A stretch of DNA of 64,000 nt from an uncultured Gammaproteobacteria bacterium (GTDB lineage: Bacteria > Patescibacteriota > Microgenomatia > Levybacterales > GWA1-39-11), in NCBI GenBank assembly GCA_964394645.1, contig CAYMYC010000001.1:359705-423704 (forward strand). Reading direction: 5' to 3'. Below, in pieces: positions 1 through 59,977 of the stretch (position 1 is its first letter; the number at the start of each line of letters is the position of its first letter). The position numbers and the translations under genes are program-made. The notes below the pieces were generated by a model. It saw only the letters and a list, made by a program, of their open reading frames with translations, made no database searches and had not been told where the DNA came from.

Positions 1-80
1 TATAATTAGTAGTAAACTATTACTTTTGTTGGAACTTACTTTTGTTATAATGTTTGCAGTAGTAGAGCATATTAGAGTTT

Positions 81-722: not shown

Positions 723-2196
723 CTTTGTTAAAGCACATTCCTTCTTGATACTTCTATTTCTGATAACAATTTTCGGTTCATTCCCTCGTGCAATTGAACT
801 TTTATCTGGAAACTACCTATTCGGGTTTGATCAAGGGCTGTTTTATGAAGCAGTATATAAGATTGTAGTATTACATCAGCCGACGCTTATAGGAGCAGAG
901 GTTGGTGGAATAGGTGGATTTTTCCAAGGTCCAGGATGGTATTACCTTTTGTCTTTCTTTTTTATAGCATTCAATGGAGATCCATACGGTGCGATGGTTC
1001 TTATGTTTTTATTAGGTGTTTTATCTATAGTTCTTGCCGGACTATTGTTTTATAAGCAAAATGGTATAGTTTTTGCCTTGATTTTTTCATTTTTAATAGC
1101 TCTTTCTCCCGGAATTATTTCTCAGTCCAGATTTTTTTGGCCACCATTTGTTATTACCCCTCTTACAATTTTATTTATATTTGCAATACAAAGCACTTAT
1201 AGTCACAAAAAATACTATTTACCTTTAGCGTTTTTTTTACTAGGTATTATGACTCACTTCGAGATAGCTACAGGAGGGTCACTGCTACTTTCAACTATAA
1301 TTACTCTTTTTTTCGTACGACCAAAAAACGTTATATCAGCTAGGATAATCGGTATAACCTTTATAGCATTTTTTGTAACTCAACTTCCAATTGTGCTGTT
1401 TGATTTACGTCACAATTTTATTGGAACAAAGGGACTACTGAAGTTTCTAACCATAGGATCATCTACGCATACTACATATTCGTTCTCAAACCATATAGAT
1501 ATGTATAAGGATGTCTTACTGATCGTAACAGGTAATTGGCAGCTTGCCTTACTTTGTTTAGCGCTTATTGTATATAGTACATTAAGGATTTTAAGAAAAA
1601 AAACAAAAACGCAAGAAAAAAAAATCATCCTTTTTATAATTTTGTGCCCTACTGTTCTTTTTATGTTATTCCTTCCATTAAAAGCTACGCTTTGGTCTTG
1701 GTGGTTTCTTGAATTGCCAGTGTTTCTCTGTTTTCTTTTATCGAGTTCATTTATTTATGCCTTTAGACAAAAAAAGATAAAAATTTTTGCTTTTTTAATT
1801 TTATTGTTACTATTTATATCATCTTCGTATCAAACGTACTCTTGGTATAAAAATGACTTTTTAGATTATGGTGGAACTGCAAAAATAAGGGGAAAAATTG
1901 ACGCGATTGACTATATATTTAAAGACGCAAAAAGAAAAAATTTTGGCTTATTAGTTTTTAGCCCCCCTGTATATACTTACCCATATGATTATCTTATAAA
2001 ATGGTACGCAGCAAAAAAATATAATTTTTATCCAAAACAAAAAATAACAAATGAGTTTTACTTATTAATTGAGCCCGATCCTGAAAAGCCATGGTCTTAC
2101 AAGGGGTGGATTGACACTGTGATTAAAAAAGGTAAGGTAGTTAAAACAATAACTCTTCCCAGTGGGTTTATCATCCAAAAAAGAATAACAGAGTAA
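715..2196 (+). CDS. polytopic membrane protein, GT-C-fold-like glycosyltransferase candidate
   Basis: 493 aa with more than 10 predicted TM helices. First loop has an acidic 'FGFDQGLFYEA' motif, like the D/E loop-1 motifs of ArnT/PMT-type GT-C enzymes. Confidence 0.4.
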   Translation: MINFVKAHSFLILLFLITIFGSFPRAIELLSGNYLFGFDQGLFYEAVYKIVVLHQPTLIGAEVGGIGGFFQGPGWYYLLSFFFIAFNGDPYGAMVLMFLLGVLSIVLAGLLFYKQNGIVFALIFSFLIALSPGIISQSRFFWPPFVITPLTILFIFAIQSTYSHKKYYLPLAFFLLGIMTHFEIATGGSLLLSTIITLFFVRPKNVISARIIGITFIAFFVTQLPIVLFDLRHNFIGTKGLLKFLTIGSSTHTTYSFSNHIDMYKDVLLIVTGNWQLALLCLALIVYSTLRILRKKTKTQEKKIILFIILCPTVLFMLFLPLKATLWSWWFLELPVFLCFLLSSSFIYAFRQKKIKIFAFLILLLLFISSSYQTYSWYKNDFLDYGGTAKIRGKIDAIDYIFKDAKRKNFGLLVFSPPVYTYPYDYLIKWYAAKKYNFYPKQKITNEFYLLIEPDPEKPWSYKGWIDTVIKKGKVVKTITLPSGFIIQKRITE

Positions 2197-2198
2197 GG

Positions 2199-2204
2199 TA
2201 TAAT
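2199..2204 (+). promoter_or_regulatory. -10 box TATAAT (within GGTATAAT) 8 nt upstream of ATG 2213
   Basis: The sequence 'AAGGTATAAT' begins at the upstream stop codon. The predicted TSS falls at or next to the start codon. Confidence 0.35.
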
Positions 2205-2212
2205 GACATTAC

Positions 2213-2986
2213 ATGAAAAAAATATCTATTGCACTTGCAACATATAACGAAAAAGATAATATTTCAAGATGTCTAAGATCCGTTCAAGATTGGGCTGATG
2301 AGATAGTGATAGTTGATGGTACCTCAAATGATGGCACTCCCGATATTGCAGAATCATATGGAGCAAGAATAATTACAAAACCAAATAATAAAAATTTTCA
2401 TATAAATAAACAGATAGCAATAGACGAATGCAGAGCACAGTGGATATTGCAACTTGATGCTGATGAAGTAGTGAGTACTGGACTGAGACGTGAGATTGAC
2501 GGGCTTATAGCGTCTAATTCTGAGCAGAATGGATATTGGATACCTAGAAAAAATTGGTTTCTTGGAAGGTTTTTGACTAAGGGCGGACAGTACCCTGACT
2601 ATACTCTTCGTCTATACAGAAATGGTAAAGGTAAGTTACCGCAAAAGGATGTACATGAGCAGGCTATTGTTGAGGGTGAGATTGGATTCTTAAAAGAAGA
2701 TTTGCTTCATTATCCGTATAAGGATTTTAGAGCATATTTGAAGAAGTGGCAGCGTTATAATATTTTTGCTGCTGACATTTTGGCTAAAGAGCTAAAAAAT
2801 AAACCAGCAATTGAGCACATAAAAATATTTTTGCTTGAACTCTTATTTAAACCGCTCTGGTGGTTTGTATGGACGTACGGTAGGCATAAGGGGTTTGTTG
2901 ACGGTTGGCAAGGGTTTGTTTTTTCTCTTTTCTCCTCATTACGATTTCCTGTATCATATATAGAATATTTACGTTTTAAGGTATAA
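2213..2986 (+). CDS. family 2 glycosyltransferase (GT-A fold)
   Basis: N-terminal 'ISIALATYNEKDNI' and DxD-like 'LQLDADEV'. 257 aa. Confidence 0.7.
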   Translation: MKKISIALATYNEKDNISRCLRSVQDWADEIVIVDGTSNDGTPDIAESYGARIITKPNNKNFHINKQIAIDECRAQWILQLDADEVVSTGLRREIDGLIASNSEQNGYWIPRKNWFLGRFLTKGGQYPDYTLRLYRNGKGKLPQKDVHEQAIVEGEIGFLKEDLLHYPYKDFRAYLKKWQRYNIFAADILAKELKNKPAIEHIKIFLLELLFKPLWWFVWTYGRHKGFVDGWQGFVFSLFSSLRFPVSYIEYLRFKV

Positions 2987-2987
2987 T
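2982..2987 (+). promoter_or_regulatory. -10 box TATAAT (within AAGGTATAAT) 6 nt upstream of ATG 2994, overlapping the upstream stop codon
   Basis: Same 10-mer as at 2195..2204. Last T at 2987, ATG at 2994, so the predicted TSS is the A of the ATG. Confidence 0.35.
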
Positions 2988-2993
2988 AAATAT

Positions 2994-3968
2994 ATGAAAG
3001 TACTAGTAGCTGGAGGGGGAGGATATATAGGAAGCTTTATGGTAAAAGCTCTGTGTGATCGTAATGACTCAGTTTTTGTTGTCGACAATTTTTTAAAGGG
3101 TTACTACGAATCTGTTGACAGACGAGCAAAAATCATTGAAGGAAATTTGATGGATGGAGCATTTGTCTCTGAGGCGATAAAAAGTATTGGTGATATTGAT
3201 GTAGTTATAAATTTTGCAGGGTTAATTGAGGTGGGACAGTCAGTGAAAGAACCTGGGCTTTATTTTAATACCAATATTTTAATAGCCTTGAACTTGTTGG
3301 AGAACATAAAAAATACCAAGACTAAATTTATTTTTTCATCAACTGCTGCTGTTTATGGTACCCCTGAGACCGTACCAATTCCAGAAAATCACATAAAAAA
3401 CCCTACAAACCCATATGGGGAAAGTAAGCTTATGATTGAAAAAATTTTACACTGGTATAATAAAACGTATGGACTATCCTTTACAGCATTGCGATATTTT
3501 AACGCTTCAGGCGCAGCGCTTGATGGTAGCATGGGGGAAAAACACAATCCAGAAAGTCATCTAATTCCTGTGGCAATAAAAGCACTTTTAGGCAAAAGCA
3601 CTTTTCATCTTTATGGTGATGACTATAAAACAAATGATGGAACTTGTTTGAGAGACTACATTCATGTCTTAGATTTGATTCAGGCTCATCTTCTCTCAAT
3701 TGATAAGATGAAGGATAATTCATCTGAGATATACAACGTGGGGACTGGAAAAGGGTACACAAATCGTGAGATTATAAATGCAATTGAAAAGATTAGTGGT
3801 GAAAAATTGGAAGTTATTGTAGCTGAGCGTAGACCAGGAGATCCTGATGAGCTGATAGCAGACCCTTCAAAAATAAAGACTGAATTAGGATTTGAGCCAA
3901 AATATTCAGATTTAGAAACAATAATAAAATCCGCTTACACCTGGCATGCGAATGAGCAGAGCAAATGA
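2994..3968 (+). CDS. UDP-hexose 4-epimerase (GalE/WbpP family, SDR)
   Basis: 'MKVLVAGGGGYIGS' Rossmann motif and 'YGESKLMIE' YxxxK catalytic motif. 324 aa, GalE-like length. Confidence 0.7.
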   Translation: MKVLVAGGGGYIGSFMVKALCDRNDSVFVVDNFLKGYYESVDRRAKIIEGNLMDGAFVSEAIKSIGDIDVVINFAGLIEVGQSVKEPGLYFNTNILIALNLLENIKNTKTKFIFSSTAAVYGTPETVPIPENHIKNPTNPYGESKLMIEKILHWYNKTYGLSFTALRYFNASGAALDGSMGEKHNPESHLIPVAIKALLGKSTFHLYGDDYKTNDGTCLRDYIHVLDLIQAHLLSIDKMKDNSSEIYNVGTGKGYTNREIINAIEKISGEKLEVIVAERRPGDPDELIADPSKIKTELGFEPKYSDLETIIKSAYTWHANEQSK

Positions 3969-9363: not shown

Positions 9364-10623
9364 ATGAGAAAGCATATAAAAAGAGTAATATCACACCCAC
9401 TCATATCAGGAAGTACGATAATATTTGTCGGGTCATTCGGTGGGAATATTTTAAATTATCTCTTTAATCTATCCGCGGGCAGACTACTATCTATTAATGA
9501 TTATAGAATACTTATCTCACTTACTGCCTTAATAACTCTTCTTATGCTTTTTCAATCAGCGTGGATAAATGTATTTACTAAGTTAGCAGCAAAATTTGCA
9601 CATCAGGGCACTAGCTCCCAAGGATATCTTATTCGTTCAGGGGTAAAACTGACATTTGGAGTCGGAGCAGCATATTTGGTTATGCTAATTCTATTAATCC
9701 ATCCTATATCTGCGTATTTACATATTGATAATACTCTTGTGGTGATAACAATGTTTTGTTCCGTATTTTTTGCAATTGCCGGATCATTGCCTGCGGGCAT
9801 TTTGCAAGGAAATTTAAAATTTGTTTGGGCATCGCTTTCAAATATTGCAGGAGCCCTGGGAAAGTTAATTATAGGAATTATTCTTATCGTTTTGGGATGG
9901 GGATTGTTTGGTGCAGCTCTGGCAGTACTATTTGCATTTATTATTCCGTATACATTCTCAATGATCTATGTACTAAAAAAATATAATTCAGAAAACGTAA
10001 AAAATAAGACACATGTTGATTTTTTTGCGGAGTTTAAAAAAATTTCTGGAGCATTTTTTATTGCTTCAATAGCCATTACTATTCTTCAAGGGACTGACGT
10101 AATTTTTGCAAGTCATTACTTGAATGATATAGAAGCGGGTCAATATGCGGCATTATCTCTTATGGGTAAGGCAATATTCTATATTACTTCGCCTATATAT
10201 TTTGTTTTTTTTCCATTGATTGCTCACAAAAAAGAAAAAAATGAAAGCACAGCCGGAACTATTCTTTTAGCATCTACTATCATTTTTCTGTGCTCTGGGC
10301 TTCTTACTTTCATATACTTTGCACTCCCTTCCCTTGTTTTAAGAGTGTTCTTCCCGGATCCTGTCTATCAACCACTAACTGCATATCTAGGATTTTATTC
10401 TATATACATCATGATATTTTCCTTTTGCTTCTTGTTGTATAATTTCTTTTTATCAGCAGGAAAGATAGGAGTATATAAAATTAACTTAAGTATCGCAATT
10501 TTATATATTTTACTTCTCTTTGTGTATCATAAGACAATTTGGGATTTTATAATTGTACTTACTTTTTCTTCATTTTTACTTTTGATATTACTTCTTGTAT
10601 ACTACAAGCATTATGAGCATTAA
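9364..10623 (+). CDS. polysaccharide biosynthesis flippase (Wzx-like, MOP superfamily)
   Basis: 419 aa with about 12 TM helices. N-terminal 'GSTIIFVGSFGGNILNYLFNLSAGRLLSINDYRILISL' resembles the PF01943 polysaccharide-biosynthesis-protein pattern. Confidence 0.55.
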   Translation: MRKHIKRVISHPLISGSTIIFVGSFGGNILNYLFNLSAGRLLSINDYRILISLTALITLLMLFQSAWINVFTKLAAKFAHQGTSSQGYLIRSGVKLTFGVGAAYLVMLILLIHPISAYLHIDNTLVVITMFCSVFFAIAGSLPAGILQGNLKFVWASLSNIAGALGKLIIGIILIVLGWGLFGAALAVLFAFIIPYTFSMIYVLKKYNSENVKNKTHVDFFAEFKKISGAFFIASIAITILQGTDVIFASHYLNDIEAGQYAALSLMGKAIFYITSPIYFVFFPLIAHKKEKNESTAGTILLASTIIFLCSGLLTFIYFALPSLVLRVFFPDPVYQPLTAYLGFYSIYIMIFSFCFLLYNFFLSAGKIGVYKINLSIAILYILLLFVYHKTIWDFIIVLTFSSFLLLILLLVYYKHYEH

Positions 10624-11356
10624 ATTTCTTTCTTTAGTTGTACCTACGTATCAGCAAGAAAAAAGTATTGTAAAAAACATTATTTCTCTTGAAAATTCGC
10701 TGCAAACAACAGGGATACCGTATGAAATATTAGTAGTTATTGATGGTGCGGTGGATAATACTCAAAAGAAGCTAAGCAAGATAAAAAGTAAGCATGTAAA
10801 AGTTTTATCTTATGAAAAAAATCAGGGTAAAGGATTCGCCGTAAGATATGGGATGCTGCAAGCAAAGGGAGATGTTATAGGATTTATCGATGGAGGATTT
10901 GATTTGGATCCGACGGGGATACTTATGTTGTTGAATCATATGGTTTGGTATAACGCTGATATCATAGTCGGTAGCAAGCTGCATCCAGTCTCTAAAGTTA
11001 AGTATCCATTTTATAGAAAAGTACTTTCTTGGGGGTACAGAACAATTACGCATCTTCTTTTTGGTTTCAAGGTAAGAGATACACAGGTTGGACTTAAACT
11101 ATTTAAAAAAAGAGTAGTACTTGATGTTTTTCCTAGATTAGTAGTAAAAAAATTTGCTTTTGATGTAGAGGTGTTAGCTGTATCGTATAGGATGGGTTAT
11201 AAAAGAATTTATGAAGCTCCAGTAAAACTTAATTTCCGTAATACGAGTACGATAAAGACAAGTACTTTTTGGGGAATCATATCACATATGCTTTGGGACA
11301 CGCTGGGTGTGTATTATAGACTCAAGATACGACGGTACTACGATAAAGCAAAATAA
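10613..11356 (+). CDS. family 2 glycosyltransferase, Dpm1/polyprenol-phosphate-sugar-synthase-like
   Basis: 'LSLVVPTYQQEKSI' and 'FIDGGFDLDP' DxD region. The ATG at 10613 is preferred over the track start at 10595. Confidence 0.65.
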   Translation: MSIKFLSLVVPTYQQEKSIVKNIISLENSLQTTGIPYEILVVIDGAVDNTQKKLSKIKSKHVKVLSYEKNQGKGFAVRYGMLQAKGDVIGFIDGGFDLDPTGILMLLNHMVWYNADIIVGSKLHPVSKVKYPFYRKVLSWGYRTITHLLFGFKVRDTQVGLKLFKKRVVLDVFPRLVVKKFAFDVEVLAVSYRMGYKRIYEAPVKLNFRNTSTIKTSTFWGIISHMLWDTLGVYYRLKIRRYYDKAK

Positions 11357-16349: not shown

Positions 16350-16392
16350 TTTTCAATCATATCTATTGATAAAACGTATAGAATTATATATT

Positions 16393-20126: not shown

Positions 20127-20196
20127 AGATTCACTGCTAAGCTTCATATAAAGTTCCTACTTCAACCCTGAAGTAAGCAGTATAATCTAAATTCAT

Positions 20197-22997: not shown

Positions 22998-24052
22998 AAG
23001 AAAGAAATAACAACAACAAATATAAATTGATATTTAAGTGGATTCTAATCCCTTTTGCACTTTTGCTATTTTGGTTTTTTGCATCATTAGTATTTAGTAC
23101 AGAGAAGGGATTTTCAGTGCTTCAATATTCTCACAATAAAGATGAGAATAACGCGTTTAATGAAAAGCAGCTGTTTAAAGGCGAAAAAGTTGAAGGCCAA
23201 TTCGTTGCAAAAGAAAATAACCTCGGAATAGTTTCTATAAGGTTTGGCAATGTACCCGATGTTGAATTTAACAAATTAGATAGGATGATTTTTAGAATTA
23301 AAGAAAAAGGGAGTAATTATTGGTATTACGAAAATATATACAGGGCAAATTTAGCTAAGCAAAATCGTTATCTTACCTTAGGCTTTGTGCCCATAGCAGA
23401 TTCCAAAGATAAGACATATCAATTTGAGTTAATTTCCTTACATGGTAATTCTCAAAATGCGGTAGAGATAAGCAATAAAGACCCCATTTACTTTTCCCTC
23501 TACAAATTTACAAAACAAGATGTATTAAATGATAAAGATTCAGTTATAAGATTTTGGCTGAATATGGTTGAAGCGTTCTTAGCAAATATTGATTCTCTTC
23601 TTTCCTCTTCATTATTTCTACTTCCGCTCGTTTTTTATATGACATGGATCATAATTGTCCAAGATCATCTAGATGAAAGATATTTGAAAAGCGGAAAAAA
23701 ACATGAATTTTATCTAAAAAAAGTACTAAAAATGTATTATAAAAATAGAAAAAGTATCTTTTCTATTATGGTTTTAGTACTATTGTTTTGTGATGCGATC
23801 CTGTTTCATGAAGAGATTACAGGATTTATACTTGGGCTAACGGGCCTTTGGATTATTGTTGTCTACATAAATAAGTTAAACAACATAGCAACATTTAAAA
23901 TTGCTTTTCTTTTAATTGCTATATCTATTATATCTACTTACTTTATGAGTTCACTATCAGTCAATAAACTTAGTATATATGCATATTTATTGTTACTAAT
24001 TGGTTGCATTCAAATGCTTGTGGCATACAAAAGACGACGTATTACTTATTGA
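22994..24052 (+). CDS. hypothetical membrane protein
   Basis: N-terminal TM segment, an extracytoplasmic domain of about 170 aa, and about 4 C-terminal TM segments. No motif I recognise. Confidence 0.4.
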   Translation: MKERNNNNKYKLIFKWILIPFALLLFWFFASLVFSTEKGFSVLQYSHNKDENNAFNEKQLFKGEKVEGQFVAKENNLGIVSIRFGNVPDVEFNKLDRMIFRIKEKGSNYWYYENIYRANLAKQNRYLTLGFVPIADSKDKTYQFELISLHGNSQNAVEISNKDPIYFSLYKFTKQDVLNDKDSVIRFWLNMVEAFLANIDSLLSSSLFLLPLVFYMTWIIIVQDHLDERYLKSGKKHEFYLKKVLKMYYKNRKSIFSIMVLVLLFCDAILFHEEITGFILGLTGLWIIVVYINKLNNIATFKIAFLLIAISIISTYFMSSLSVNKLSIYAYLLLLIGCIQMLVAYKRRRITY

Positions 24053-25016
24053 TAAGATTGTATAGATTATTTGAAATTATTTTGTGCGCATTAAGCGTAG
24101 GGTGTATATCATCAGCGTAGTCTTTGTCAGTTAGCCAAGTTGAGGTATCTATAAATTCTGCGCTATTTTTTTCAGCCACATTTTCTGCCTCACTATTATA
24201 TGAATTAATTACATCGGTGTTAATATCACTTCTTAGCAAAATTCCAACAACAAACAATTTCCCTGTGTTCCATTTTTTTAAATCTGTAAGAATTTTATTG
24301 AGCGTCGCCCCAAAAGATGCGACAGGTACGTTATTGGCTATGTCGTTTGTACCAAGAAAGATGATTGTTGCAGACGATTTATAATTTGATATATCCTTTT
24401 TATAACGATCTTGTGCGCTTGGAGTTGAAGGTATTTTAACAAGGGTAGAGCTAAGTATGCTTGAATTGTGAAGTTCATATCTTAATTTATCTGCAAGTAA
24501 TATTGTGTAGTTACCTTTTCCGTACATGGTTGAGATCGAGTCGCCAATCACCGAAATAGTCTTTTTATGGGGCTTATAAGTGGTAATTACTGCATTTGCG
24601 GGTGCACGTAAACTTGTTAGTTGTATACTGCATGGATCATAGAAATATTCACAGATGTATCGTATTGAAATTTTATTACTTTCTTCTTTATCAAGAGATA
24701 TTTTTATTGATTTATTATTTTGAGCAGGGTAGGAGTAGTATTCTTTTTTTCCATTTAGTGTTATCTCAATACTTTGAGTTGCTTTGGATACTGTGTTGAA
24801 TTTGAATTCAATAATACTTGTATTTGATATAGATAAAGCTATTTCTGAGCCTGAATATGTGCTTTGATTGTTTATCCAACTTTTACTTTTATAAAGTATC
24901 GGGTTGTAACTCATATCAATTTCTCTATTTGAGTATTGATTATGTGCGTAATAGACAGACATTGAAAAAAAAATAAAAAATAGAGTAAGTGCTATGTGCT
25001 TTTTTATATGTTTCAT
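24042..25016 (-). CDS. secreted SGNH/GDSL hydrolase (putative glycan O-acetyl esterase)
   Basis: Signal peptide. Block I 'VIGDSIS', block III 'GTNDIA', block V 'DDIHPT'. One of only two antisense genes inside the glycan locus. Confidence 0.7.
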   Translation of the reverse strand: MKHIKKHIALTLFFIFFSMSVYYAHNQYSNREIDMSYNPILYKSKSWINNQSTYSGSEIALSISNTSIIEFKFNTVSKATQSIEITLNGKKEYYSYPAQNNKSIKISLDKEESNKISIRYICEYFYDPCSIQLTSLRAPANAVITTYKPHKKTISVIGDSISTMYGKGNYTILLADKLRYELHNSSILSSTLVKIPSTPSAQDRYKKDISNYKSSATIIFLGTNDIANNVPVASFGATLNKILTDLKKWNTGKLFVVGILLRSDINTDVINSYNSEAENVAEKNSAEFIDTSTWLTDKDYADDIHPTLNAHKIISNNLYNLINK

Positions 25017-25072
25017 GGAATTGTATTATATTTGTATTTTGTTATAATTGCTACTATGCCTACTTATCTAAC

Positions 25073-26749
25073 ATGCGTAATAACATATTAACTTTCCTCA
25101 AAGTTTTCCCTGTATTTTTTTTCATAATATTCATCGCAACCTTTGGTTTACTACAAGGGTACTTTCAGCAAGATGAGTGGATGGGCATTGCAGATGTGAT
25201 GCTCTCATACTCTCGTCCATGGTGGCATCCGTATTTACCTTGGGTACATTTTTCACCAATTGGAGTATTTATTTGGAGCACATTATATAAAGTATTTCAT
25301 CTTCAAGCACAATTCTATTTTTTAATTCAACTTATTGTTCATGCTTCTTGTGCAACGCTTGTTTATATTTTAACTGTAAAAATAACCAAAAACAAAGCAA
25401 TAGCCATTTTAAGCGGTCTTCTTTTTCTAACCAACGCGCGTGCACACCAAGCTTTTACGCACCTAGCGATTTTTCATACTACAACTTTGGCCATGTTCTT
25501 CATACTGCTTTTTTTTGTTTTCCTATCTAGTATCAAAAATACAGTCTTTTCATTTAAGAGCACATTAATACTGACTTTAATATTTATTGCTACTGTTGCT
25601 ACCCGCGAAGAGGGGTTTATAATTATTCCAATTGCAGCCGTATATATATTTTGTTTTGATAAAGATAAAATTAACAAAAAAAATATTATTCCGCTAGCCC
25701 TGTTTTCTATTGGAGTCATTGCATTTCTGGGTGTAAGAATGTTTGCACAACTCTTAAATCCGGTTCCAGTTCCTTTGGAATATCAAATTGCAGGGTCCGG
25801 TGTTAAATATAACATGGCGACAGTTCCTGTAAAATTTGTTGTACAAAATTTAATTTATTCGGAAAGATTTGCTTTGTTTTTTATTGCGAATACTCAAAAG
25901 GCGTATCCAGAAATAGATTCGTTTTTTACTAGTCATGCACCAATTATGGATGCAGGATTCTTTTATGTATTTAGCATGATGGCTATCATTTTTGCCTTTT
26001 GGTTATGGCGTGTTAGGCCTAGGCGTATAGGTCCTATGCTCATTTTCTTATCCACATGGATATTTGCAAACGCATTTATACTTTCATTTGTGGGAAGGCA
26101 GCTCTCGGTAATTGAACCAAGATATTTGTATTTTTCAAGCTTTCCAGTTCTTTGCCTATTATCAATTTTTCTCTATACCATGTTTATATCGCAAGATAAA
26201 CTTAAAATTATTAATGTGATAAAGAAAATATTTGTAATAGTTATTTTAGGTTTTTTAGTTTTTACCTCAGTTGAAGAAATTAGAGTGGCAGTTCGAAGAC
26301 AAATAGTTGATGGAGAAGCCAAGAAAAAGATTATTAAGAGTTTGCTTACTGTGCACCCTACATTATCCAGGAATACGATCTTTTATGTTAGGTGCAAAGT
26401 TGAGTGTTATCGCAATACTCGCGATTTTGGTATTTCGAATCAAAATGTGTTACCTTTTTCTTCGGGACCCGGAATGAATTTTTTGGTGACATATGCAAGC
26501 GTTCAAGGACAGGAAAAAGAATGGGGGCAATTTTTTACCAATATGTTTCTCTTTAATACATTTTCAGAAGATTATAAAAAAATTGGTGACAGGAGTTTTG
26601 GCTACTTTGTTACGAAAAGTAAGCTTGAAGAAACGCTTAAGAAAAACAAATTGTCAAAAGACATTGTTGTTGCATTAGAAATAGATGAGTCTACCTATAC
26701 TTTTATTGATATTTCAGAAGAATTTAGAAAAACTATTTTCCAAAATTAA
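25073..26749 (+). CDS. GT-C-fold-like polytopic membrane protein
   Basis: Multi-TM. Loop-1 'YFQQDEWMGIADV' DE motif. The track start at 24989 would overlap the antisense gene. ATG 25073 is preferred. Confidence 0.45.
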   Translation: MRNNILTFLKVFPVFFFIIFIATFGLLQGYFQQDEWMGIADVMLSYSRPWWHPYLPWVHFSPIGVFIWSTLYKVFHLQAQFYFLIQLIVHASCATLVYILTVKITKNKAIAILSGLLFLTNARAHQAFTHLAIFHTTTLAMFFILLFFVFLSSIKNTVFSFKSTLILTLIFIATVATREEGFIIIPIAAVYIFCFDKDKINKKNIIPLALFSIGVIAFLGVRMFAQLLNPVPVPLEYQIAGSGVKYNMATVPVKFVVQNLIYSERFALFFIANTQKAYPEIDSFFTSHAPIMDAGFFYVFSMMAIIFAFWLWRVRPRRIGPMLIFLSTWIFANAFILSFVGRQLSVIEPRYLYFSSFPVLCLLSIFLYTMFISQDKLKIINVIKKIFVIVILGFLVFTSVEEIRVAVRRQIVDGEAKKKIIKSLLTVHPTLSRNTIFYVRCKVECYRNTRDFGISNQNVLPFSSGPGMNFLVTYASVQGQEKEWGQFFTNMFLFNTFSEDYKKIGDRSFGYFVTKSKLEETLKKNKLSKDIVVALEIDESTYTFIDISEEFRKTIFQN

Positions 26750-26750
26750 C

Positions 26751-27500
26751 ATGAATTTTCACGCTCTCTTCCTACAATTGAACGAAATCTACAAAAAAAA
26801 GGGTTTTTTATCTTTGCTGACCTTTTTACTTATTGGGTTCAACAATGCATTTATTAATAAATACATTAGAGGTTCGTTTAGTCAAAAAGGAGAAGACTTA
26901 ATATTAGAGAAAATATTTACACGTAAGAATAGTGGTTTTTATGTTGATGTTGGAGCAAACAATCCAGATATTTTTAACAACACGAAAAAATTCTATTTAA
27001 AAGGGTGGAGGGGAATAAATATTGAACCTAACCCAATGCTATTAAACAGGTTTAAAATCGAAAGGAAGAGAGATATAAATATAAATTTTGGAATTGGCAA
27101 AAAAAGAGGTTTTGCATCTTTTTATGAGTTTGAGATAAGTAGCATTTCTACTTTTAGTAAAAATGATAAAGAGAATAAAATTAAATTAGGCTACAGATTA
27201 AAGAGCGAATCCAAAATAAAAGTATATAGATTAGAGGATATTATGAGAAAATTCTGTAAGAAAAAAATTGATTTTATGAATGTAGACACAGAAGGAATGG
27301 ATCTTGAAGTTTTAAAAAGTAATGATTGGAAAATGTTTAGACCAAAAGCTGTATGCGTGGAAACAGGCGATGTCTGGTCTACACTATCAAATGAGTTGGA
27401 GAATAATAAAAAGAGACTAATAGACAGATTTATGAAAAATAACAGTTATAGAATTTTTTATTCAAACGATTTAAACACAATATATGTAGAAAATGATTAA
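26751..27500 (+). CDS. FkbM-family methyltransferase
   Basis: 'FYVDVGANNPDIFNNT', 'GINIEPNP', 'IDFMNVDTEGMDLEVL' are hallmark PF05050-type motifs. ATG 26751 lies right after the upstream stop. Confidence 0.7.
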   Translation: MNFHALFLQLNEIYKKKGFLSLLTFLLIGFNNAFINKYIRGSFSQKGEDLILEKIFTRKNSGFYVDVGANNPDIFNNTKKFYLKGWRGINIEPNPMLLNRFKIERKRDININFGIGKKRGFASFYEFEISSISTFSKNDKENKIKLGYRLKSESKIKVYRLEDIMRKFCKKKIDFMNVDTEGMDLEVLKSNDWKMFRPKAVCVETGDVWSTLSNELENNKKRLIDRFMKNNSYRIFYSNDLNTIYVEND

Positions 27501-28156
27501 CGAGGTAGCATGTCCCTATAAATTGATTTATCATATTTGGCTTTTTTTACTTTTTCTGCTACAAAATACATGCCTCTTGAAAGGGGTTTAAATCTTCCAT
27601 ATTCCCCGTATGAAAGAATAGAAAATCCATGAGACTGTAACAGCGTTGAGAGACTTTTCTTAGTAAAGAATCTAATGTGTTGAGAGTAGGGATTGTAAAC
27701 AATCTCAAATCCTATAAGTGCAATCACAAGATTTTTTATTGTCCCATGATAGGGGGTGCTAATAAAAATTTTCCCGCCTTTTTTGAGGCAACGATTCATT
27801 TCAAGTAGGTAATTGGAAACATCAAATATATGTTCAATTACGTCTGCAGCTAAAATAAAATCAACGCTCTCATTTTTTATTGGAATCTTTTCATCTCCAG
27901 AAAGAGCGTAGAACTTAGCCTTAGGGAATCTTTTTTTTGCTTTATTTATAGCATAAGAGGAAATATCTATTCCAACAATTTTGTAAGGATTTACTTTTAG
28001 AAATTCTTCTATGTATCTACCTTCCCCACACCCAAAGTCTAGTATGGTACTATTCTTGGAAGGAAGAACACTTTTTATTTTTGGCCATTTCCATTTAAAA
28101 TCATGACCTTCTGCTAAGCCGCCTTCTTTCCACCATAAGTCATAAATTTTCTTCAT
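27497..28156 (-). CDS. class I SAM-dependent methyltransferase
   Basis: 'ILDFGCGEGRY' motif I. 'ADVIEHI'. Antisense to the locus. Confidence 0.7.
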   Translation of the reverse strand: MKKIYDLWWKEGGLAEGHDFKWKWPKIKSVLPSKNSTILDFGCGEGRYIEEFLKVNPYKIVGIDISSYAINKAKKRFPKAKFYALSGDEKIPIKNESVDFILAADVIEHIFDVSNYLLEMNRCLKKGGKIFISTPYHGTIKNLVIALIGFEIVYNPYSQHIRFFTKKSLSTLLQSHGFSILSYGEYGRFKPLSRGMYFVAEKVKKAKYDKSIYRDMLPR

Positions 28157-28256
28157 ACAAAATTATACCATAATTTCTAATGCAAATTAGAGAGGAATAT
28201 ATTATAATCACTGATATGCAAAAATTCTGCCAAAAAATTGTATACGTCTATTAACG

Positions 28257-34101: not shown

Positions 34102-34334
34102 AAATACAAGACATTATTTTTCTTGTCATTTTTGTAGCGTTGGTTGTAACAAGTTTAAAAAATCCTAGGCGATTTGTGTATGCAGGATTAACCTGTATTA
34201 TTTTATCAATTCCATTATTTTATCTATGGATTTTTTTCACAGCACAACGCCTTCTTTATTATGGATTAGCATTCTTACTAATAGCGGTAGTGATTTTCCT
34301 TTATTTTTTAATCATGAAAGGCTATAATAAATAA
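34098..34334 (+). CDS. small membrane protein (2-3 TM), possible GtrA-like accessory
   Basis: 78 aa, almost entirely hydrophobic helices. ATGA-coupled to the YfhO-like gene. Confidence 0.3.
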   Translation: MKIQDIIFLVIFVALVVTSLKNPRRFVYAGLTCIILSIPLFYLWIFFTAQRLLYYGLAFLLIAVVIFLYFLIMKGYNK

Positions 34335-35355: not shown

Positions 35356-35426
35356 CCTCATACTGAGAAGTACTTTTTAGACGAATGCATATTTTTTTAT
35401 CATAAATTGGGGTAGAATATAATTAC

Positions 35427-35966
35427 ATGAAAATTGGAATTGATATATCTCAGTTAGCATATAAAGATACCGGAGTTGCCAACTATCTTGAAAATTTAGT
35501 AGCAGAGTTAATTGAAAAAGATAGGAAGAATGAATATATTCTGTTTTTCTCATCATTACGTGGCAATATGAATCACACAAAGCTTACTATTCTAGGTAAT
35601 AATTCAAAGGTTACAATAAGAAAGTTTAAATTTCCGCTCTTTTTACTCGATATCATTTGGAATAGAATGCATATTTTCCCTATAGAATGGTTTGTAGGGA
35701 ATATAGATTTGTATATAACATCTGATTGGATTGAGCCACCTGTAAGAAAAGCTAAAAAAGCTACAATCTTGTATGACCTTGTCGTATCTCTCTATCCAAA
35801 TGAAACAGCAAAAAAAATAATTCAAACACAGAAAAGAAAATTATCTTGGGTAAAAAATGAGAGCAGTATAATTTTCTGTATCTCAAGCTCAACTGCAAAA
35901 GATGCTAAAAGAATTCTTGGAATTGATGAAAACAAATTTCGGGTGATATACCCGGGAGTGTCATAA
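35427..35966 (+). CDS. GT4 N-terminal-domain-only protein (truncated glycosyltransferase, possible pseudogene)
   Basis: 'MKIGIDISQLAYKDTGVANYLENL' is a GT4 N-domain start shared with ORFs 7216, 36018 and 45425. The ORF ends at 179 aa, before any EX7E catalytic domain. Confidence 0.4.
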   Translation: MKIGIDISQLAYKDTGVANYLENLVAELIEKDRKNEYILFFSSLRGNMNHTKLTILGNNSKVTIRKFKFPLFLLDIIWNRMHIFPIEWFVGNIDLYITSDWIEPPVRKAKKATILYDLVVSLYPNETAKKIIQTQKRKLSWVKNESSIIFCISSSTAKDAKRILGIDENKFRVIYPGVS

Positions 35967-36017
35967 TAAAAACTGTAACAAGTATAATTACCGTTATTTA
36001 ATCAAGATGAAATTTAT

Positions 36018-37145
36018 ATGAAAATAGGAATAAATGGATACGAAGCAGTGGTTCCTCGTTTTGGTTACACAAGTGAAGGATTTCCTAACCGTGTGGGGAG
36101 CGCTGAGGTTTGCTTCCAGCTTTTATTAGAATTATCAAAACTTGATAAAAAAAATTCATACATTATTTATCTCCCATCCCTTCCAACGAAGGATATGCCT
36201 GAAGAGTCAGCAACCTGGGAATATAGAGTGGTGCCCGCTAAAAGATTTTGGACCCTTATTGCACTTCCTATGGCGCTACGTCGGGATAGACCCGATATAT
36301 TTTTCTCTCCAACGCATTATTCACCTCTTTTTATGCCCATAAAGACGGTACTTACCATACTAGACGTATCTTATAAATATTTCCCTGAAATGTTTACAAA
36401 GAAAGATTTATATAAACTGTCCTGGTGGGGGAAATATTCTGTTAAAAAGTCAAAGAAAATTATAACAATAAGTGAAAGCAGCAAAGATGATATAATAATA
36501 ACATACGGTATAAGCCCGAAAAATGTTAATGTTATCCATCTGGGAATAAAAAATTTACCAACAGTCAGCATGACAAAAGAAGAATTATTTAAAAAATATT
36601 CAGTTAATACGCCTTACATATTATTTGTGGGAACGCTACAGCCAAGAAAAAATGTTAAACGTTTGATACAGGCAATTTCATTGCTAAAAAATAAAGAAGT
36701 TAAGCTTGTTATTATTGGTAAAAAGGGATGGATGTATGAGGAAATTCTTTCAGCTCCTGAAAAATTTGATATCTTAAATCGTGTCACTTTTTTGCATGAA
36801 GTTGTAAATGCTGAGCTTCCTTTTTTCTATAAACACGCGTCACTATTTGTTCTCCCTAGTTTATACGAGGGTTTTGGTTTGCCAATTCTTGAAGCGATGA
36901 AATATAAATGTCCGGTAGTGACAAGTAATGTAAGTAGCTTGCCGGAAGCAGGAGGAGACGCAGCTCTTTATGTTAATCCGGAAGATGTTTCAGAGATTGC
37001 AGAAAAAATTGATGAAGTACTTGGAAACACAAAATTAAGGGATAGAATGATAAAATTAGGAGACGCTCAAGTTAAAAAATTTTCGTGGGATAAAGCAGCT
37101 AGAGAAGTAATAACGGTTTTTGAGGAAACCTTTGGAAAAGAATAG
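36018..37145 (+). CDS. family 4 glycosyltransferase
   Basis: 'PSLYEGFGLPILEAMKYKCPVVTSNVSSLPE'. Confidence 0.75.
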   Translation: MKIGINGYEAVVPRFGYTSEGFPNRVGSAEVCFQLLLELSKLDKKNSYIIYLPSLPTKDMPEESATWEYRVVPAKRFWTLIALPMALRRDRPDIFFSPTHYSPLFMPIKTVLTILDVSYKYFPEMFTKKDLYKLSWWGKYSVKKSKKIITISESSKDDIIITYGISPKNVNVIHLGIKNLPTVSMTKEELFKKYSVNTPYILFVGTLQPRKNVKRLIQAISLLKNKEVKLVIIGKKGWMYEEILSAPEKFDILNRVTFLHEVVNAELPFFYKHASLFVLPSLYEGFGLPILEAMKYKCPVVTSNVSSLPEAGGDAALYVNPEDVSEIAEKIDEVLGNTKLRDRMIKLGDAQVKKFSWDKAAREVITVFEETFGKE

Positions 37146-45273: not shown

Positions 45274-45424
45274 ATGCTAACGGGTACTCAGTTGGTAGTA
45301 ATAGTTATTATATATTTTAAGGGTTTGTAACAGCAACTTCGATTAATAATATCTTCATGGTAAATTTTTAATCGCCATTACTTAGTTTGTTGATTAATTC
45401 AATCAAATCAAGGATAATGGTGGA

Positions 45425-46579
45425 ATGATAGATGAGGGAATAATTCAAAAAATAGGTATCGATATAAGGTTATGGAATGAGACTGGAATCGGACGATATA
45501 TACGAAATTTAATTTTTGAGTTAGCCAAAATTGAACAAAAAAACAAATACGTTTTATTCGCAAGACCAGATGATATACCAGAAATTAACAGATTAAGTAA
45601 CATAAGTGAGGCAAAGGAAAAATTTATTATTATTCCGACAAGCATTAAATGGCACTCAATACAGGAGCAAGTAGAATTTCCTAGGATTTTGATGAAATAT
45701 AAGTTAGATTTAATGCATTTCCCATATTTTTCTGTACCAGTTTTTTATAGAAGATCATTTGTTGTAACTGTTCATGATTTGATTATTAATCATTTCCCAA
45801 CTGGACGTGCAACCACACTCCCGTTGCCTCTATATAGAATAAAACGTGTCGGATATGAACTTATTTTAAAGTCTGCGGTTTCAGGCGCTAAAAAAATTAT
45901 TGTACCATCAGAAGCAACGAGGCGTGAATTAGTTGAACACTACCAGATAAAGGAAGATAAGATTATTGTAACCCAGGAAGGAATTGATGAAAACATAAAT
46001 TCTTTCACTCCTGTAGTATTTAAAGATAAACACCCATATTTTCTTTATGTGGGGAATGTATATCCTCACAAAAATATTGAAGTAATGCTTGAAGCATTTA
46101 AGATATTTTCAATACAGCATCCAGGTGTCGTAATCAAATTAGTCGGAAAACAGGACTATTTTTATAAACGATTAAGAATGTATGTAGAAAAACACAAGAT
46201 ATCTCACGTTGAATTTATGGGGTATGTAGATGATTCTAAGTTGTCCAATCTTTATTCAAATGCTGTAGCTACAGTTATTCCTTCTCTTATGGAGGGTTTC
46301 GGTTTGACTGCGTTGGAGGCAATGAAAATGAAATCTTTAGTAGTTGTTTCAAAAATTCCTTCACTTCAGGAAGTATGCGGTAAGAATGCAATATATTTTG
46401 ACCCGAATGATACTTTAAGTATTGTGGATGCCATGAATATTTCACTAAATCTTAAAAGTGAAGATAAGAAGAAGATGTTAAGCAGTGCAATGGAGCATTC
46501 AGAAACATTTACCTGGGAAAAAATGGCTAAGCAAACGATTGCAGTATACGATTCCTGCCTCAAAAAGCATAAGATATAA
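45425..46579 (+). CDS. family 4 glycosyltransferase
   Basis: 'PSLMEGFGLTALEAMKMKSLVVVS'. Confidence 0.75.
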   Translation: MIDEGIIQKIGIDIRLWNETGIGRYIRNLIFELAKIEQKNKYVLFARPDDIPEINRLSNISEAKEKFIIIPTSIKWHSIQEQVEFPRILMKYKLDLMHFPYFSVPVFYRRSFVVTVHDLIINHFPTGRATTLPLPLYRIKRVGYELILKSAVSGAKKIIVPSEATRRELVEHYQIKEDKIIVTQEGIDENINSFTPVVFKDKHPYFLYVGNVYPHKNIEVMLEAFKIFSIQHPGVVIKLVGKQDYFYKRLRMYVEKHKISHVEFMGYVDDSKLSNLYSNAVATVIPSLMEGFGLTALEAMKMKSLVVVSKIPSLQEVCGKNAIYFDPNDTLSIVDAMNISLNLKSEDKKKMLSSAMEHSETFTWEKMAKQTIAVYDSCLKKHKI

Positions 46580-52047: not shown

Positions 52048-52181
52048 TAACAATACTGAATTTTACCATGAGTGCTTATTCAAATAATTTTTGGTATACT
52101 TACTTCAATAATAAGTGGTTAGCAGATTTAGATATAGCTCAAGATGAGTATTTCTGACATGCACACTTTTATTATAGACGT

Positions 52182-53690: not shown

Positions 53691-53731
53691 ACTCTTGACA
53701 GACATGTGTTGGTATGTCAGGATAGTTATGT

Positions 53732-54223: not shown

Positions 54224-54344
54224 GTGTACATCTTCTCAGATTCTTAATCTAGTAAAAAATCTCCTTATAATTAAAATATTTTCACGGCAACACTACATAT
54301 AGTGTATCATGTGATTTTTGAACCTAAAAATGTTAAATAAGGGG

Positions 54345-54373
54345 TTGACATACCGTGAAAAGTTATTTATAAA
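54345..54373 (+). promoter_or_regulatory. sigma70-type promoter upstream of mraZ (TTGACA-17 nt-TATAAA)
   Basis: TTGACA at 54345..54350. Exactly 17-nt spacer. TATAAA at 54368..54373. Confidence 0.5.
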
Positions 54374-54390
54374 TATATAGTACATTAAAA

Positions 54391-54410
54391 AGTAGGAATA
54401 AGTAGGATAA
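54391..54410 (+). promoter_or_regulatory. tandem 10-bp direct repeat AGTAGGAATA/AGTAGGATAA (candidate MraZ operator)
   Basis: Two adjacent 10-bp repeats (9/10 identical). They lie 18 to 37 nt downstream of the -10 box, between the promoter and mraZ. Confidence 0.35.
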
Positions 54411-55797: not shown

Positions 55798-56082
55798 ATG
55801 AAATTAAAACTAATATTTACCCTTATGATAACACTGATAGTCCTTCTCCAATGTGTGCAAGTTTATTTGTCAAATAGAATTGCAGGAACGAGCATAGAGG
55901 TTGCTAAATTAAGACAAGATATAGAGTTACTTGATGAGAAGAATACGAGTCTAAAAACACAGCTACTTGCGCACTCATCATTTACCTCAGTTGCATCCAG
56001 AGCAGCAGAGCTTGGGTTTACTGAAACAAAAAATAATGTTATTCTTTTAAAAGCTCCGCTGCCAGTTGCTGTTTCTTACTAA
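55798..56082 (+). CDS. ftsL: cell division protein FtsL-like
   Basis: 94 aa. Single N-terminal TM plus coiled-coil. Positioned between rsmH and ftsI as in dcw clusters. Confidence 0.5.
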   Translation: MKLKLIFTLMITLIVLLQCVQVYLSNRIAGTSIEVAKLRQDIELLDEKNTSLKTQLLAHSSFTSVASRAAELGFTETKNNVILLKAPLPVAVSY

Positions 56083-58450: not shown

Positions 58451-58459
58451 TGGTATAAT
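58451..58459 (+). promoter_or_regulatory. extended -10 promoter element TGgTATAAT upstream of murC
   Basis: TG at 58451..58452, TATAAT at 58454..58459, 12 nt before the murC ATG (58472). Confidence 0.4.
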
Positions 58460-58471
58460 AGCTATAGGAAA

Positions 58472-59977
58472 ATGATTAGACGGATATATTTTGTAGGAAT
58501 AAAAGGAGTTGGGATGACGGCTCTTTCATTAATAGCAAAAGAAGCAGGGTTTATGGTTCGTGGGTCAGATGTTTCGGAAGAGTTTATTACTGATTCTGTG
58601 TTACAACATGCGGATATACCCATAGATGAGGGATTTGAGATTGAAAGCTTAGAAACCTTTATAGGTGATGCCTACTCTGAATCTTTAGTTATAACGACAG
58701 CTGCGCATGGAGGTTTGGAAAACCCACAATCATTATATGCGAAAAAGCAGGGAATATCTGTATTAACACACGGGCAAGCGCTCGGATTATTTATGGATGG
58801 GAAAATAGTAAAGAAAAATTTTAGTGGGATATCAGTTTTAGGTTGTCATGGAAAAACAACTATTACCGCTATGTGTGCTACAGCGTTTTCTAAATTAAAA
58901 CTTAATCCCACATACGCAGTAGGTACATCTGAAATTTTTCCCTTGGGAAACCCTGGACACTTTGGAAATGGAAAATATTTTATTTCTGAGGCAGATGAAT
59001 TTATCTCAGACATAAATCATGATAAGACAGTAAAATTTTTTTATCAGCATCCCAAATTTGCTATTTTAAATAATATAGACTTTGACCATCCTGATGTTTA
59101 TAAAGATTTGAATGAGGTAAATCTTACTTTTAAGAAGTTTTGCAGTGAGAACATAGCGCATGCAGGAGTACTTATAGCAAACGGAGATGATAAAAACGTT
59201 AGAAGTATTATACAAAGTCTTATAAGTATGCGACCTGACGTGCGGGTAATAACATACGGTCAGGATCAGGTAAATAATATTCAACTCGTAAATTTTAGTG
59301 AAGAGAATTGGGAAAGTAGTTTTGAGGTTATTCAAAATGGTAAAAACCTTGGAAAGTTTAAATTATGTGTTCCTGGCTTTCATAACGCAAAGAACGCACT
59401 TTCAGTATTTGGGATTTTATTAGAACTAGGATTTAGTTCTCAAGAGATTCAGATGGCGCTTTTGGAGTATAAAGGAGGCAAAAGGAGACAGGAATATATT
59501 GGGGAGACAAAGAATGGGGCAATTGTAATAGATGATTATGCGCATCATCCCGATGAAATAGACAAAACATTGCAGGCTGTAAAAAACGCTTATAAAACAA
59601 GAAAAATAGTTTGTGTTTTTCAGCCTCATACACTTTCAAGAACTAAATCACTCTGGCGCAACTTCGCAGAATCTTTTACATCAGCTAACGAAGTCTTATT
59701 TTTGCCAATCTTTACATCCAAAAGAGAGGGTGAGACAGACTATAGTGATTTATATGACTCAATTAAAAAATTAATGAAGGAAAAAGGTAGTGATGCAACG
59801 TTTTTTGAAGATACAAGAAGTTCTGAGGATAAGAATTTTCCACCGTTTTTTTATGAGAAAAATCGTCTTTTTGTGATAAAATACATACATTCCCACTTTG
59901 ACTCATCCCAATGGGTTATTGTGACCTTAGGTGCTGGCGATTTGTACAGAATTTCTTATGACCTGGTACAAAAATAA
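58472..59977 (+). CDS. murC: UDP-N-acetylmuramate--L-alanine ligase (MurC/Mpl family)
   Basis: 'IYFVGIKGVGMTALSLIAKEAGFMVRGSD' MurC N-terminus. 'GCHGKTT' P-loop. Confidence 0.75.
   Translation: MIRRIYFVGIKGVGMTALSLIAKEAGFMVRGSDVSEEFITDSVLQHADIPIDEGFEIESLETFIGDAYSESLVITTAAHGGLENPQSLYAKKQGISVLTHGQALGLFMDGKIVKKNFSGISVLGCHGKTTITAMCATAFSKLKLNPTYAVGTSEIFPLGNPGHFGNGKYFISEADEFISDINHDKTVKFFYQHPKFAILNNIDFDHPDVYKDLNEVNLTFKKFCSENIAHAGVLIANGDDKNVRSIIQSLISMRPDVRVITYGQDQVNNIQLVNFSEENWESSFEVIQNGKNLGKFKLCVPGFHNAKNALSVFGILLELGFSSQEIQMALLEYKGGKRRQEYIGETKNGAIVIDDYAHHPDEIDKTLQAVKNAYKTRKIVCVFQPHTLSRTKSLWRNFAESFTSANEVLFLPIFTSKREGETDYSDLYDSIKKLMKEKGSDATFFEDTRSSEDKNFPPFFYEKNRLFVIKYIHSHFDSSQWVIVTLGAGDLYRISYDLVQK

Follow-up and report, generated by a model that had tools for sequence, protein, structure and literature searches.

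Start-proximal TATAAT boxes suggest leaderless or near-leaderless transcripts in a Levyibacteriota locus

Results

Gene content of the window and its relatives

The stretch of DNA analyzed here (the window; 64 kb of contig CAYMYC010000001.1, 33% GC and 66% A+T, with intergenic DNA of 69.5% A+T) carries the hexamer TATAAT a few nucleotides (nt) upstream of several start codons, and these boxes are the subject of this report. Almost all genes lie on the plus strand. A locus of glycosyltransferase, PMT_2, and sugar-nucleotide genes spans positions 1 to 49 kb and is followed, in order, by recO, a class II aminoacyl-tRNA synthetase gene, mraZ-rsmH-ftsL-ftsI, an rmlC-like gene on the minus strand, murE, murA, and a glmU-like gene. 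Neighboring genes overlap or are separated by a gap of ≤7 nt at 33 of the 56 junctions, ten of these with the sequence ATGA. These tight junctions suggest, but do not show, translational coupling of internal genes. Scans of the whole window with Rfam (gathering thresholds) and for tRNAs found nothing.

The RsmH protein is 87% and 79% identical to those of two metagenome-assembled genomes named Candidatus Levyibacteriota (L007 and L008), both of which are syntenic with the window from 45 to 64 kb. In the NCBI taxonomy, Levyibacteriota is a phylum within the Microgenomates group of Patescibacteria, or the candidate phyla radiation (CPR). For the region at 2 to 4 kb, where a family 2 glycosyltransferase (GT2) gene precedes an epimerase gene, syntenic loci were available from L140, L141, and L142 (85%, 70%, and 68% GT2 identity). 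Six other assemblies (L001 to L006) carry near-identical strains; every box is invariant in them, and their identity of 98.6 to 99.7% leaves too little divergence to inform on conservation. An exact 43-mer from the window had no match among the GTDB representative genomes.

TATAAT is enriched directly upstream of gene starts

Throughout, the spacer is the number of nucleotides between the end of the hexamer and the start codon, and gene starts in the window were set by a crude rule (longest open reading frame [ORF], first ATG). A preliminary description, made from the letters of the window, had listed six pairs of TATAAT and ATG, and the coordinates of all six are exact (boxes at 2199, 2982, 20181, 35418, 54450, and 58454; Table 1). 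It spoke of at least six gene starts; three further exact cases were found, two on the minus strand and one on the plus strand, for a total of nine. The first two sites share a word, as described, which is the 11-mer TAAGGTATAAT and not a 10-mer, and the second box does cover the TAA stop codon (2984 to 2986) of the upstream GT2 gene.

The hexamer is not globally enriched, with 66 copies on the plus strand and 61 on the minus strand against approximately 83 expected per strand. The excess is positional: exact TATAAT lies at a spacer of 3 to 12 nt at 9/57 gene starts versus 27/2,249 (1.2%) other ATGs (Fisher P = 1e-7). Mononucleotide shuffling of the 40 nt before each start gave a mean of 1.0, and none of 5,000 shuffles reached 9. 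Control hexamers of the same composition occurred in this spacer range before only two gene starts (TAATAT) and one gene start (ATTATA). The loose pattern TAnnnT was not enriched over its reverse or complement in the window, the signal being confined to hexamers that match at least five of the six positions. Approximately 18 genes follow a gap of ≥40 nt or have a divergent neighbor, and 10 to 12 of them have a strong −10 hexamer at a spacer of 5 to 12 nt. Most of the remainder have one at 14 to 29 nt, and one has it at 48 nt, implying very short leaders.

The same spacing recurs in related loci

The spacing was then scanned at the level of the clade. Homologs of the GT2 gene at 2213 (47 to 66% identity) were used to fetch 80 metagenomic loci, of which the 72 with a GC content below 40% (775 kb) are referred to as CPR loci. 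The scan was start agnostic: for each TATAAT on both strands, the spacer was recorded to any ATG that came first in an ORF of at least 100 codons. Non-CPR dcw loci totaling 887 kb (Clostridia, Bacteroidetes, Proteobacteria, and others; L009 to L059) formed the control set.

A sharp peak appeared at 6 to 8 nt and was absent from the controls. TATAAT occurred 16, 12, and 10 times at spacers 6, 7, and 8 in the 72 contigs, with 0 to 2 matches at neighboring spacers, while the control hexamers gave 0, 0, and 1 (ATTATA) and 3, 0, and 1 (TAATAT) in the same contigs. The non-CPR loci gave 2, 0, and 1 for TATAAT. Over a 150-nt range, the excess of TATAAT was limited to spacers 5 to 9 (46 versus 6 for the control) and a small shoulder at 15 to 19 (13 versus 4). 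Variants that keep T1, A2, and T6 (TATCAT, TACAAT, TATACT, and TATGAT) peak at the same spacing in the related loci; TAATAT, ATTATA, and TATATA do not. Separately, TATAAT-to-first-ATG distances in the AT-rich Firmicutes control loci show a spike at spacer 16 (8 to 9 matches), which probably reflects a single gene of the dcw cluster used for fetching, at which this arrangement is conserved.

A motif-free count of hexamers in the region from −20 to −1 of first-in-unit genes in the CPR loci also ranked TATAAT as the top enriched hexamer, with 32 of 165 genes carrying it against 2.1 expected; among internal genes, 23/421 carry it. The list of enriched hexamers held no word resembling a Shine-Dalgarno (SD) sequence. 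Broken down by the gap to the upstream gene, a −10 hexamer at spacer 5 to 9 precedes 10% of overlapping genes, 22% of genes after 1 to 20 nt, 33% of those after 21 to 50 nt and of divergent genes, 26% after 51 to 150 nt, and 15% after more than 150 nt. Promoters fitted into short junctions therefore form a real class, although some matches to five of the six positions in short gaps are expected to be stop-codon artifacts.

The start codon that follows the box at spacers 6, 7, and 8 is ATG in 16, 10, and 12 cases, GTG in 2, 2, and 0, and TTG in 1, 0, and 0. The near absence of TTG fits transcription from a purine with which the start codon also begins.

Start-proximal boxes carry further promoter signatures

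In the CPR loci, TGn lies directly upstream of 26 to 31% of start-proximal boxes versus 4.5% of approximately 11,000 other −10-like hexamers (P of about 1e-14), and TTG is found at a 17-nt spacing in 11 to 17% versus 1.8% elsewhere (P between 1e-5 and 4e-13). At the control spacings of 10 to 12 and 24 to 26 nt, TTG was not enriched. These features, the choice of start codon included, argue against an effect of base composition and against an A/U-rich ribosome signal acting at the mRNA level.

Shine-Dalgarno sequences are nearly absent

The preliminary description saw no SD sequence between box and start. The spacers are too short to hold one, none was seen, and a strong SD precedes just two of the 57 genes in the window (AAGGAGG before 61307 and GGAGG before 47763). 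In the window, the mean energy of the anti-SD duplex, computed without the organism's own 16S 3′ end, was −1.65 kcal/mol at gene starts versus −2.46 kcal/mol at other ATGs. With one crude gene caller, the share of genes preceded by a 4-mer SD core was 7% in the window, 8% in the CPR loci, and 13% in L007 and L008 together, against 11 to 15% of all ATGs, with 11 to 12% for the window and the CPR loci; the same caller found it before 48% of genes in Firmicutes loci versus a background of 12%. No gene class showed SD enrichment, internal genes included, so the dual model of GeneMarkS-2 group C, in which the other genes are SD led, does not describe these loci.

An alternative SD candidate, the AAGG in AAGGTATAAT, was ruled out: it ends 12 to 14 nt from the ATG, and G is generally favored just before the box. 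The AAGGAGG before the glmU-like gene (61285 to 61306; 5 to 6 nt before the ATG at 61307) is kept in L007 and L008. It sits in the coding end of murA (…KEE…), for which reason its conservation may reflect the protein rather than an SD.

Orthologs keep the box while the flanks diverge

Several boxes are preserved in relatives of the window. At mraZ, TATAAT, 6 nt, and ATG are found in all three Levyibacteriota genomes (the window, L007, and L008), with differing spacer and upstream sequences, and at the rmlC-like gene TACAAT, 6 nt, and ATG are likewise found in 3/3. The boxes of the glycosyltransferase family 4 (GT4) genes at 45425 and 46666 and of the DUF4012 gene at 49556 are kept at 6, 11, and 17 nt. 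In L007 and L008, murE has the arrangement TGGTATAAT, 6 nt, ATG (2/3 genomes). The start of murE in the window reads AGG AAA ATG (58466 to 58474), compared with ATG AAA AAG in the relatives, so that the new in-frame ATG lies two codons downstream; the N termini align as RK-MIRR in the window and MKKIRR in L007 and L008. The 12-nt spacing of this gene is therefore explained by loss of the ancestral ATG at spacer 6, leaving a predicted leader of approximately 6 nt.

The box of the GT2 gene, TATAAT in 4/4 genomes, has a spacer of 8 in the window and 6 in L140, L141, and L142. In all four it sits in the 14- to 22-nt gap after the upstream gene, and its flanks have diverged completely. Among distinct upstream regions of GT2 orthologs, 28/55 carry a −10 hexamer matching at least five of six positions at spacer 5 to 9. 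A conserved box in diverged flanks makes the hexamer at 2199 very likely a real internal promoter, from which the GT2 mRNA is predicted to be leaderless or to have a leader of 1 to 2 nt. Judged from these comparisons, selection maintains the arrangement of box and ATG.

Individual sites

The boxes and the two genes of the GT2-epimerase region are listed in Table 1. At 35427, the TATAAT at 3 nt would be too close for a start there, and the overlapping TAGAAT at 8 nt fits better. Five units, starting at 81, 25073, 28257, 36018, and 49556, have predicted leaders of 10 to 40 nt that lack an SD.

Table 1. Start-proximal boxes and the genes of the GT2-epimerase region in the window (spacers in nt; leader lengths are predictions)
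Position	Strand	Feature	Remarks
46..51	+	TGTTATAAT promoter, 29 nt before ATG 81	Leader of ~22 nt without SD; TATAAT 19 nt before the orthologous ATG in L141
2199..2204	+	TATAAT, spacer 8 to GT2 ATG 2213	Exact; lies between the stop of gene 715-2196 and the GT2 ATG (16-nt gap); candidate internal promoter
2213..2986	+	GT2 gene, 257 amino acids	ORF; Pfam PF00535
2982..2987	+	TATAAT, spacer 6 to epimerase ATG 2994	Exact; overlaps GT2 stop; uncertain candidate for a lineage-specific internal promoter
2994..3968	+	NAD-dependent epimerase/dehydratase gene, 324 amino acids	ATG downstream of the 2982 box
10598..10603	+	TATACT, spacer 9 to ATG 10613	Within the 3′-terminal part of the upstream gene; weak candidate for an internal promoter; word also in L141, there within coding sequence
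16379..16384	+	TAGAAT, spacer 8 to ATG 16393	Weak internal-promoter candidate
20181..20186	+	TATAAT, spacer 10 to ATG 20197	After a 70-nt gap; leader of ~3-4 nt
25025..25030	−	TATAAT, spacer 8 to ATG 25016 (gene 24042-25016)	Half of a divergent promoter pair
25043..25048	+	TATAAT, 24 nt before ATG 25073	Short leader without SD; 11-codon ORF opens 7 nt past the box, at 25056
28162..28167	−	GGTATAAT, spacer 5 to ATG 28156 (gene 27497-28156)	Exact TATAAT case
34323..34328	+	TATAAT, spacer 7 to epimerase ATG 34336	After a 234-nt gap
35413..35423	+	TAGAATATAAT	TATAAT (35418-35423) at spacer 3 to ATG 35427; overlapping TAGAAT (35413-35418) at spacer 8
35983..35988	+	TATAAT, 29 nt before ATG 36018	Short leader without SD
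45413..45418	+	GATAAT, spacer 6 to ATG 45425 (GT4)	Same arrangement in L007
46649..46654	+	TATACT, spacer 11 to ATG 46666 (GT4)	Conserved in L007
49533..49538	+	TATACT, spacer 17 to ATG 49556 (DUF4012)	TATAAT at equal spacing in L008; leader of ~10 nt without SD
52170..52175	+	TATTAT, spacer 6 to ATG 52182 (class II aminoacyl-tRNA synthetase)	−10-like boxes at 7 and 13 nt in relatives
53695..53723	+	TTGACA, 17-nt spacer, CAGGAT, then 8 nt to ATG 53732	Conserved in L007 and L008
54450..54455	+	TATAAT, spacer 6 to mraZ ATG 54462	Exact; MraZ Pfam match; conserved in L007 and L008
58388..58393	−	TACAAT, spacer 6 to ATG 58381 of the rmlC-like gene	Conserved in L007 and L008
58454..58459	+	TGGTATAAT (extended −10), spacer 12 to murE ATG 58472	Ancestral ATG position (58466-58468) reads AGG

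Two TATAAT hexamers that do not adjoin the ATG of a gene each lie 7 nt before the ATG of an ORF of 11 to 12 codons (25056 to 25091 and 28216 to 28254), which ends at or just before the main starts at 25073 and 28257. These could be leaderless upstream mini-ORFs. A general class of promoters away from gene ATGs that drive leaderless mini-ORFs was unsupported across the clade, where the excess of short-ORF ATGs at spacer 5 to 7 was weak and unconvincing.

The gap between the GT2 and epimerase genes is filled in several related contigs by three to four tandem units of 7 nt (L098, 971 to 991; L100, 927 to 947; L136, 10781 to 10801; L094, 10661 to 10681; L095, 987 to 1014; L072, 10218 to 10245). 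The units read TTCATAA, GTTCATR, or ATACATA and vary by lineage; L074 has two 12-nt copies instead (10774 to 10799). Such units could make the junction or its promoter slippage prone and phase variable.

Two further parts of the window deserve mention. The 179-amino-acid ORF at 35427 to 35966 contains only an N-terminal Glyco_transf_4 domain, and a complete GT4/GT1 gene of 375 amino acids (36018 to 37145) starts 51 nt on; the shorter ORF may be a truncated duplicate or a split gene. An ORF for a small membrane protein (~94 amino acids; 55798 to 56082) occupies an apparent gap of 289 nt before ftsI, in an FtsL-like position between rsmH and ftsI, and ORFs of 95 and 94 amino acids lie at the same place in L007 and L008.

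Upstream region of mraZ

Directly after a distal promoter upstream of mraZ (see Discussion) are three direct repeats with a 10-nt period, AGTACATTAA AAGTAGGAAT AAGTAGGATA (54379 to 54410). By analogy, their layout resembles MraZ operator arrays, and the distal promoter may be autoregulated, besides the proximal box. A further block at 54270 to 54330, aaaatattttcacggcaacactacatatagtgtatcatgtgatttttgaacctaaaaa, is conserved in the three genomes and holds the inverted repeat cactacatatagtg. A search of the mraZ upstream region against Rfam in E-value mode gave no match at E ≤ 1.

Discussion

Leaderless first genes as the likely explanation

We propose that the TATAAT hexamers would act as −10 elements of housekeeping sigma-70-type promoters, often with TGn and usually with a weak −35. 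RNA polymerase would start approximately 7 nt past the box and hence at, or a few nucleotides from, the A of the ATG: at the A itself for spacers of 6 to 7 nt, and with a leader of 1 to 6 nt for spacers of 8 to 12 nt. The first gene of many transcription units would then be carried on a leaderless or near-leaderless mRNA, whose 5′-terminal AUG would be bound directly by the ribosome without SD pairing, as in other leaderless systems. Genes further down the unit, also without an SD and in most cases overlapping or adjoining their neighbors, would depend on coupling, reinitiation, or SD-independent entry for their translation. We consider this explanation likely as a whole; it draws on observed positional enrichment, promoter signatures, start-codon specificity, absence of SD sequences, and conservation in orthologs. 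The widespread leaderless translation proposed in the preliminary description is, as a prediction, supported by the clade-level peak, the sigma-70 signatures, the missing SD, and the orthologs. Its placement of transcription starts at or near the start codon agrees with the spacing and the promoter signatures for most sites; the box 3 nt before 35427 is too close, and 20197 and 58472 would have short leaders.

Several observations weigh against this explanation or narrow it. Spacers of 3, 10, and 12 nt do not yield strictly leaderless transcripts. Of the six boxes first described, none has a good −35 and only that at 58454 has TGn; the boxes at 2199 and 2982 are preceded by GG. Scans of 60 kb of the window for a generic −35/−10 consensus gave no enrichment over dinucleotide shuffles, a result that is uninformative here since the scans missed the start-proximal boxes; scans of the same 60 kb for intrinsic terminators gave no enrichment over such shuffles either. 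The 72 contigs were chosen by GT2 homology and carry no taxonomic assignment, their gene starts follow the crude longest-ORF, first-ATG rule, and approximately 13 of the peak matches (about a third) are the very GT2 gene used for fetching; the signature enrichments persist when these are removed. L007 and L008 share with the window a canonical promoter distal to mraZ (TTGACA, 17 nt, TATAAA; 54345 to 54373). Transcripts from it would contain the proximal TATAAT in a 5′ untranslated region of approximately 85 nt, and the proximal box may be a second promoter or part of a leader. Where transcription starts and how ribosomes load is what we infer from sequence.

The box at 2982 is the weaker of the flagged pair. 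It is kept only in L140, the 85% relative, and is absent in L141; among the more distant loci, the GT2 and epimerase genes usually overlap at an ATGA, with no box. The hexamer may have arisen recently as a promoter or may be a side effect of the TAA stop codon, and an internal promoter there is uncertain. The earlier proposal that internal promoters punctuate the locus very probably holds for 2199, where the box is conserved in four genomes, and is left in doubt for 2982. It is in itself unsurprising that a locus of 49 kb in which the strand switches twice is not a single operon.

Alternative explanations

The boxes could instead act in translation, independently of SD pairing, as A/U-rich elements for ribosome binding or standby on leadered mRNAs, like the motif used by Bacteroidetes, with transcription starting further upstream. 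The absence of SD sequences does call for another initiation signal, a strong and conserved distal promoter lies upstream of the proximal mraZ TATAAT, and −10-like hexamers reach approximately twice the background even before overlapping internal genes (10%). On the other side, hexamers of the same composition show no peak, and the boxes carry TGn and TTG at 17 nt, which are DNA signals for RNA polymerase. The motif is also concentrated at first-in-unit and divergent genes (19 to 33%) rather than at all genes, and the spacing of 6 to 8 nt matches that between a −10 box and the start of transcription. We regard a translation signal as unlikely. Still less likely is that the promoters are real and the annotated ATGs wrong, with translation from a downstream codon on mRNAs with ordinary leaders. 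Starts were indeed set by a first-ATG rule, and in the window the ATG of murE lies 6 nt further down than the ancestral one, yet the N termini of MraZ and MurE align across orthologs from the box-adjacent ATG, there is no SD either upstream or downstream, and the peak is specific to an ATG or GTG that opens a long ORF, short ORFs having no clear peak.

The least credible alternative is chance, that is, AT-only hexamers arising in AT-rich intergenic DNA and at TAA stops. The A+T content of the genome, the lack of overall TATAAT enrichment, the failure of TAnnnT to exceed its reverse, and the box at 2982, which contains the upstream stop and is not conserved in distant relatives, all speak for it. 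Against these stand the Fisher test, the shuffles, an intergenic A+T content of only 69.5%, the sharp clade-level peak absent in controls, and the orthologs that keep the box despite diverged flanks. Chance is refuted for the class as a whole; it may account for individual sites such as those at 2982, 10598, and 16379.

Implications and comparison with known systems

A broader reading is that, in Levyibacteriota and probably the wider Microgenomates or CPR, initiation proceeds essentially without SD pairing, with leaderless mRNA as the default for first cistrons and coupling or reinitiation downstream. A leaderless default would follow from the observation that approximately three-quarters of the consensus-promoter excess sits 5 to 9 nt from an ATG, and we hold the chances of this broader reading to be evenly balanced. 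If leaderless expression in these loci is confirmed, a deep-branching bacterial group with reduced ribosomes joins the users of leaderless mRNA, and leaderless first cistrons would be combined with no detectable SD at other genes, which is unusual for bacteria. The broader reading amounts to a regime like that of haloarchaea in bacteria whose ribosomes are reduced, and it would bear on the question of an ancestral leaderless initiation and on start-codon calling in the CPR. The −10-to-ATG rule would also serve as a sequence-only aid to settle start codons and the limits of transcription units in uncultured members of the CPR, mark internal promoters in tightly packed glycosylation loci (e.g., at 2199), and predict promoter fragments expected to work in heterologous hosts.

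None of the papers searched linked leaderless expression to the CPR, Patescibacteria, Saccharibacteria, Microgenomates, or Parcubacteria, and one paper describes loss of the anti-SD, in a subgroup of Parcubacteria only (PMC9297842). The kind of signal is already known; what is new is its taxonomic scope and the combination of features, not the principle. The same positional signal was used to predict leaderless genes across bacteria, termed "TA-led" genes (PMC3160421). GeneMarkS-2 assigns genomes with a Pribnow box 6 to 8 nt from the start to its group C, which includes 90% of Actinobacteria and 97% of Deinococcus-Thermus (PMC6028130).

Group C or TA-led organisms (Mycobacterium tuberculosis, Streptomyces, and Deinococcus-Thermus) resemble the present loci in having a −10 box 6 to 8 nt before the starts of first genes, no SD between, and an AUG or GUG start, and in both cases leaderlessness is predicted from the same positional signal. 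Group C genomes are, however, mostly GC rich, and their leadered and internal genes are SD led, whereas here the GC content is 33%, the box is close to a perfect TATAAT, and the SD is unenriched at any class of genes. Non-SD initiation in Bacteroidetes (GeneMarkS-2 group B) is similar in leaving the SD unused and in having A/T-rich regions before starts; there the motif is found on leadered mRNAs before every gene, also the internal ones, and is not a promoter, in contrast to the promoter-type hexamer concentrated at first-in-unit genes here. Extended −10 promoters of bacteria (TGnTATAAT) combine a consensus −10 and TGn with a weak or absent −35. The present boxes share the consensus −10, with TGn in 26 to 31% (the murE box TGGTATAAT among them), and differ in that only this minority has TGn. 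The haloarchaea Haloferax volcanii and Halobacterium salinarum (GeneMarkS-2 group D) are similar in that most first cistrons are leaderless and the SD is little used, and their leadered mRNAs are SD independent. Their promoter is a TATA box approximately 22 to 26 nt upstream, served by another polymerase and other initiation factors, whereas the loci described here carry a bacterial −10 box at 6 to 8 nt.

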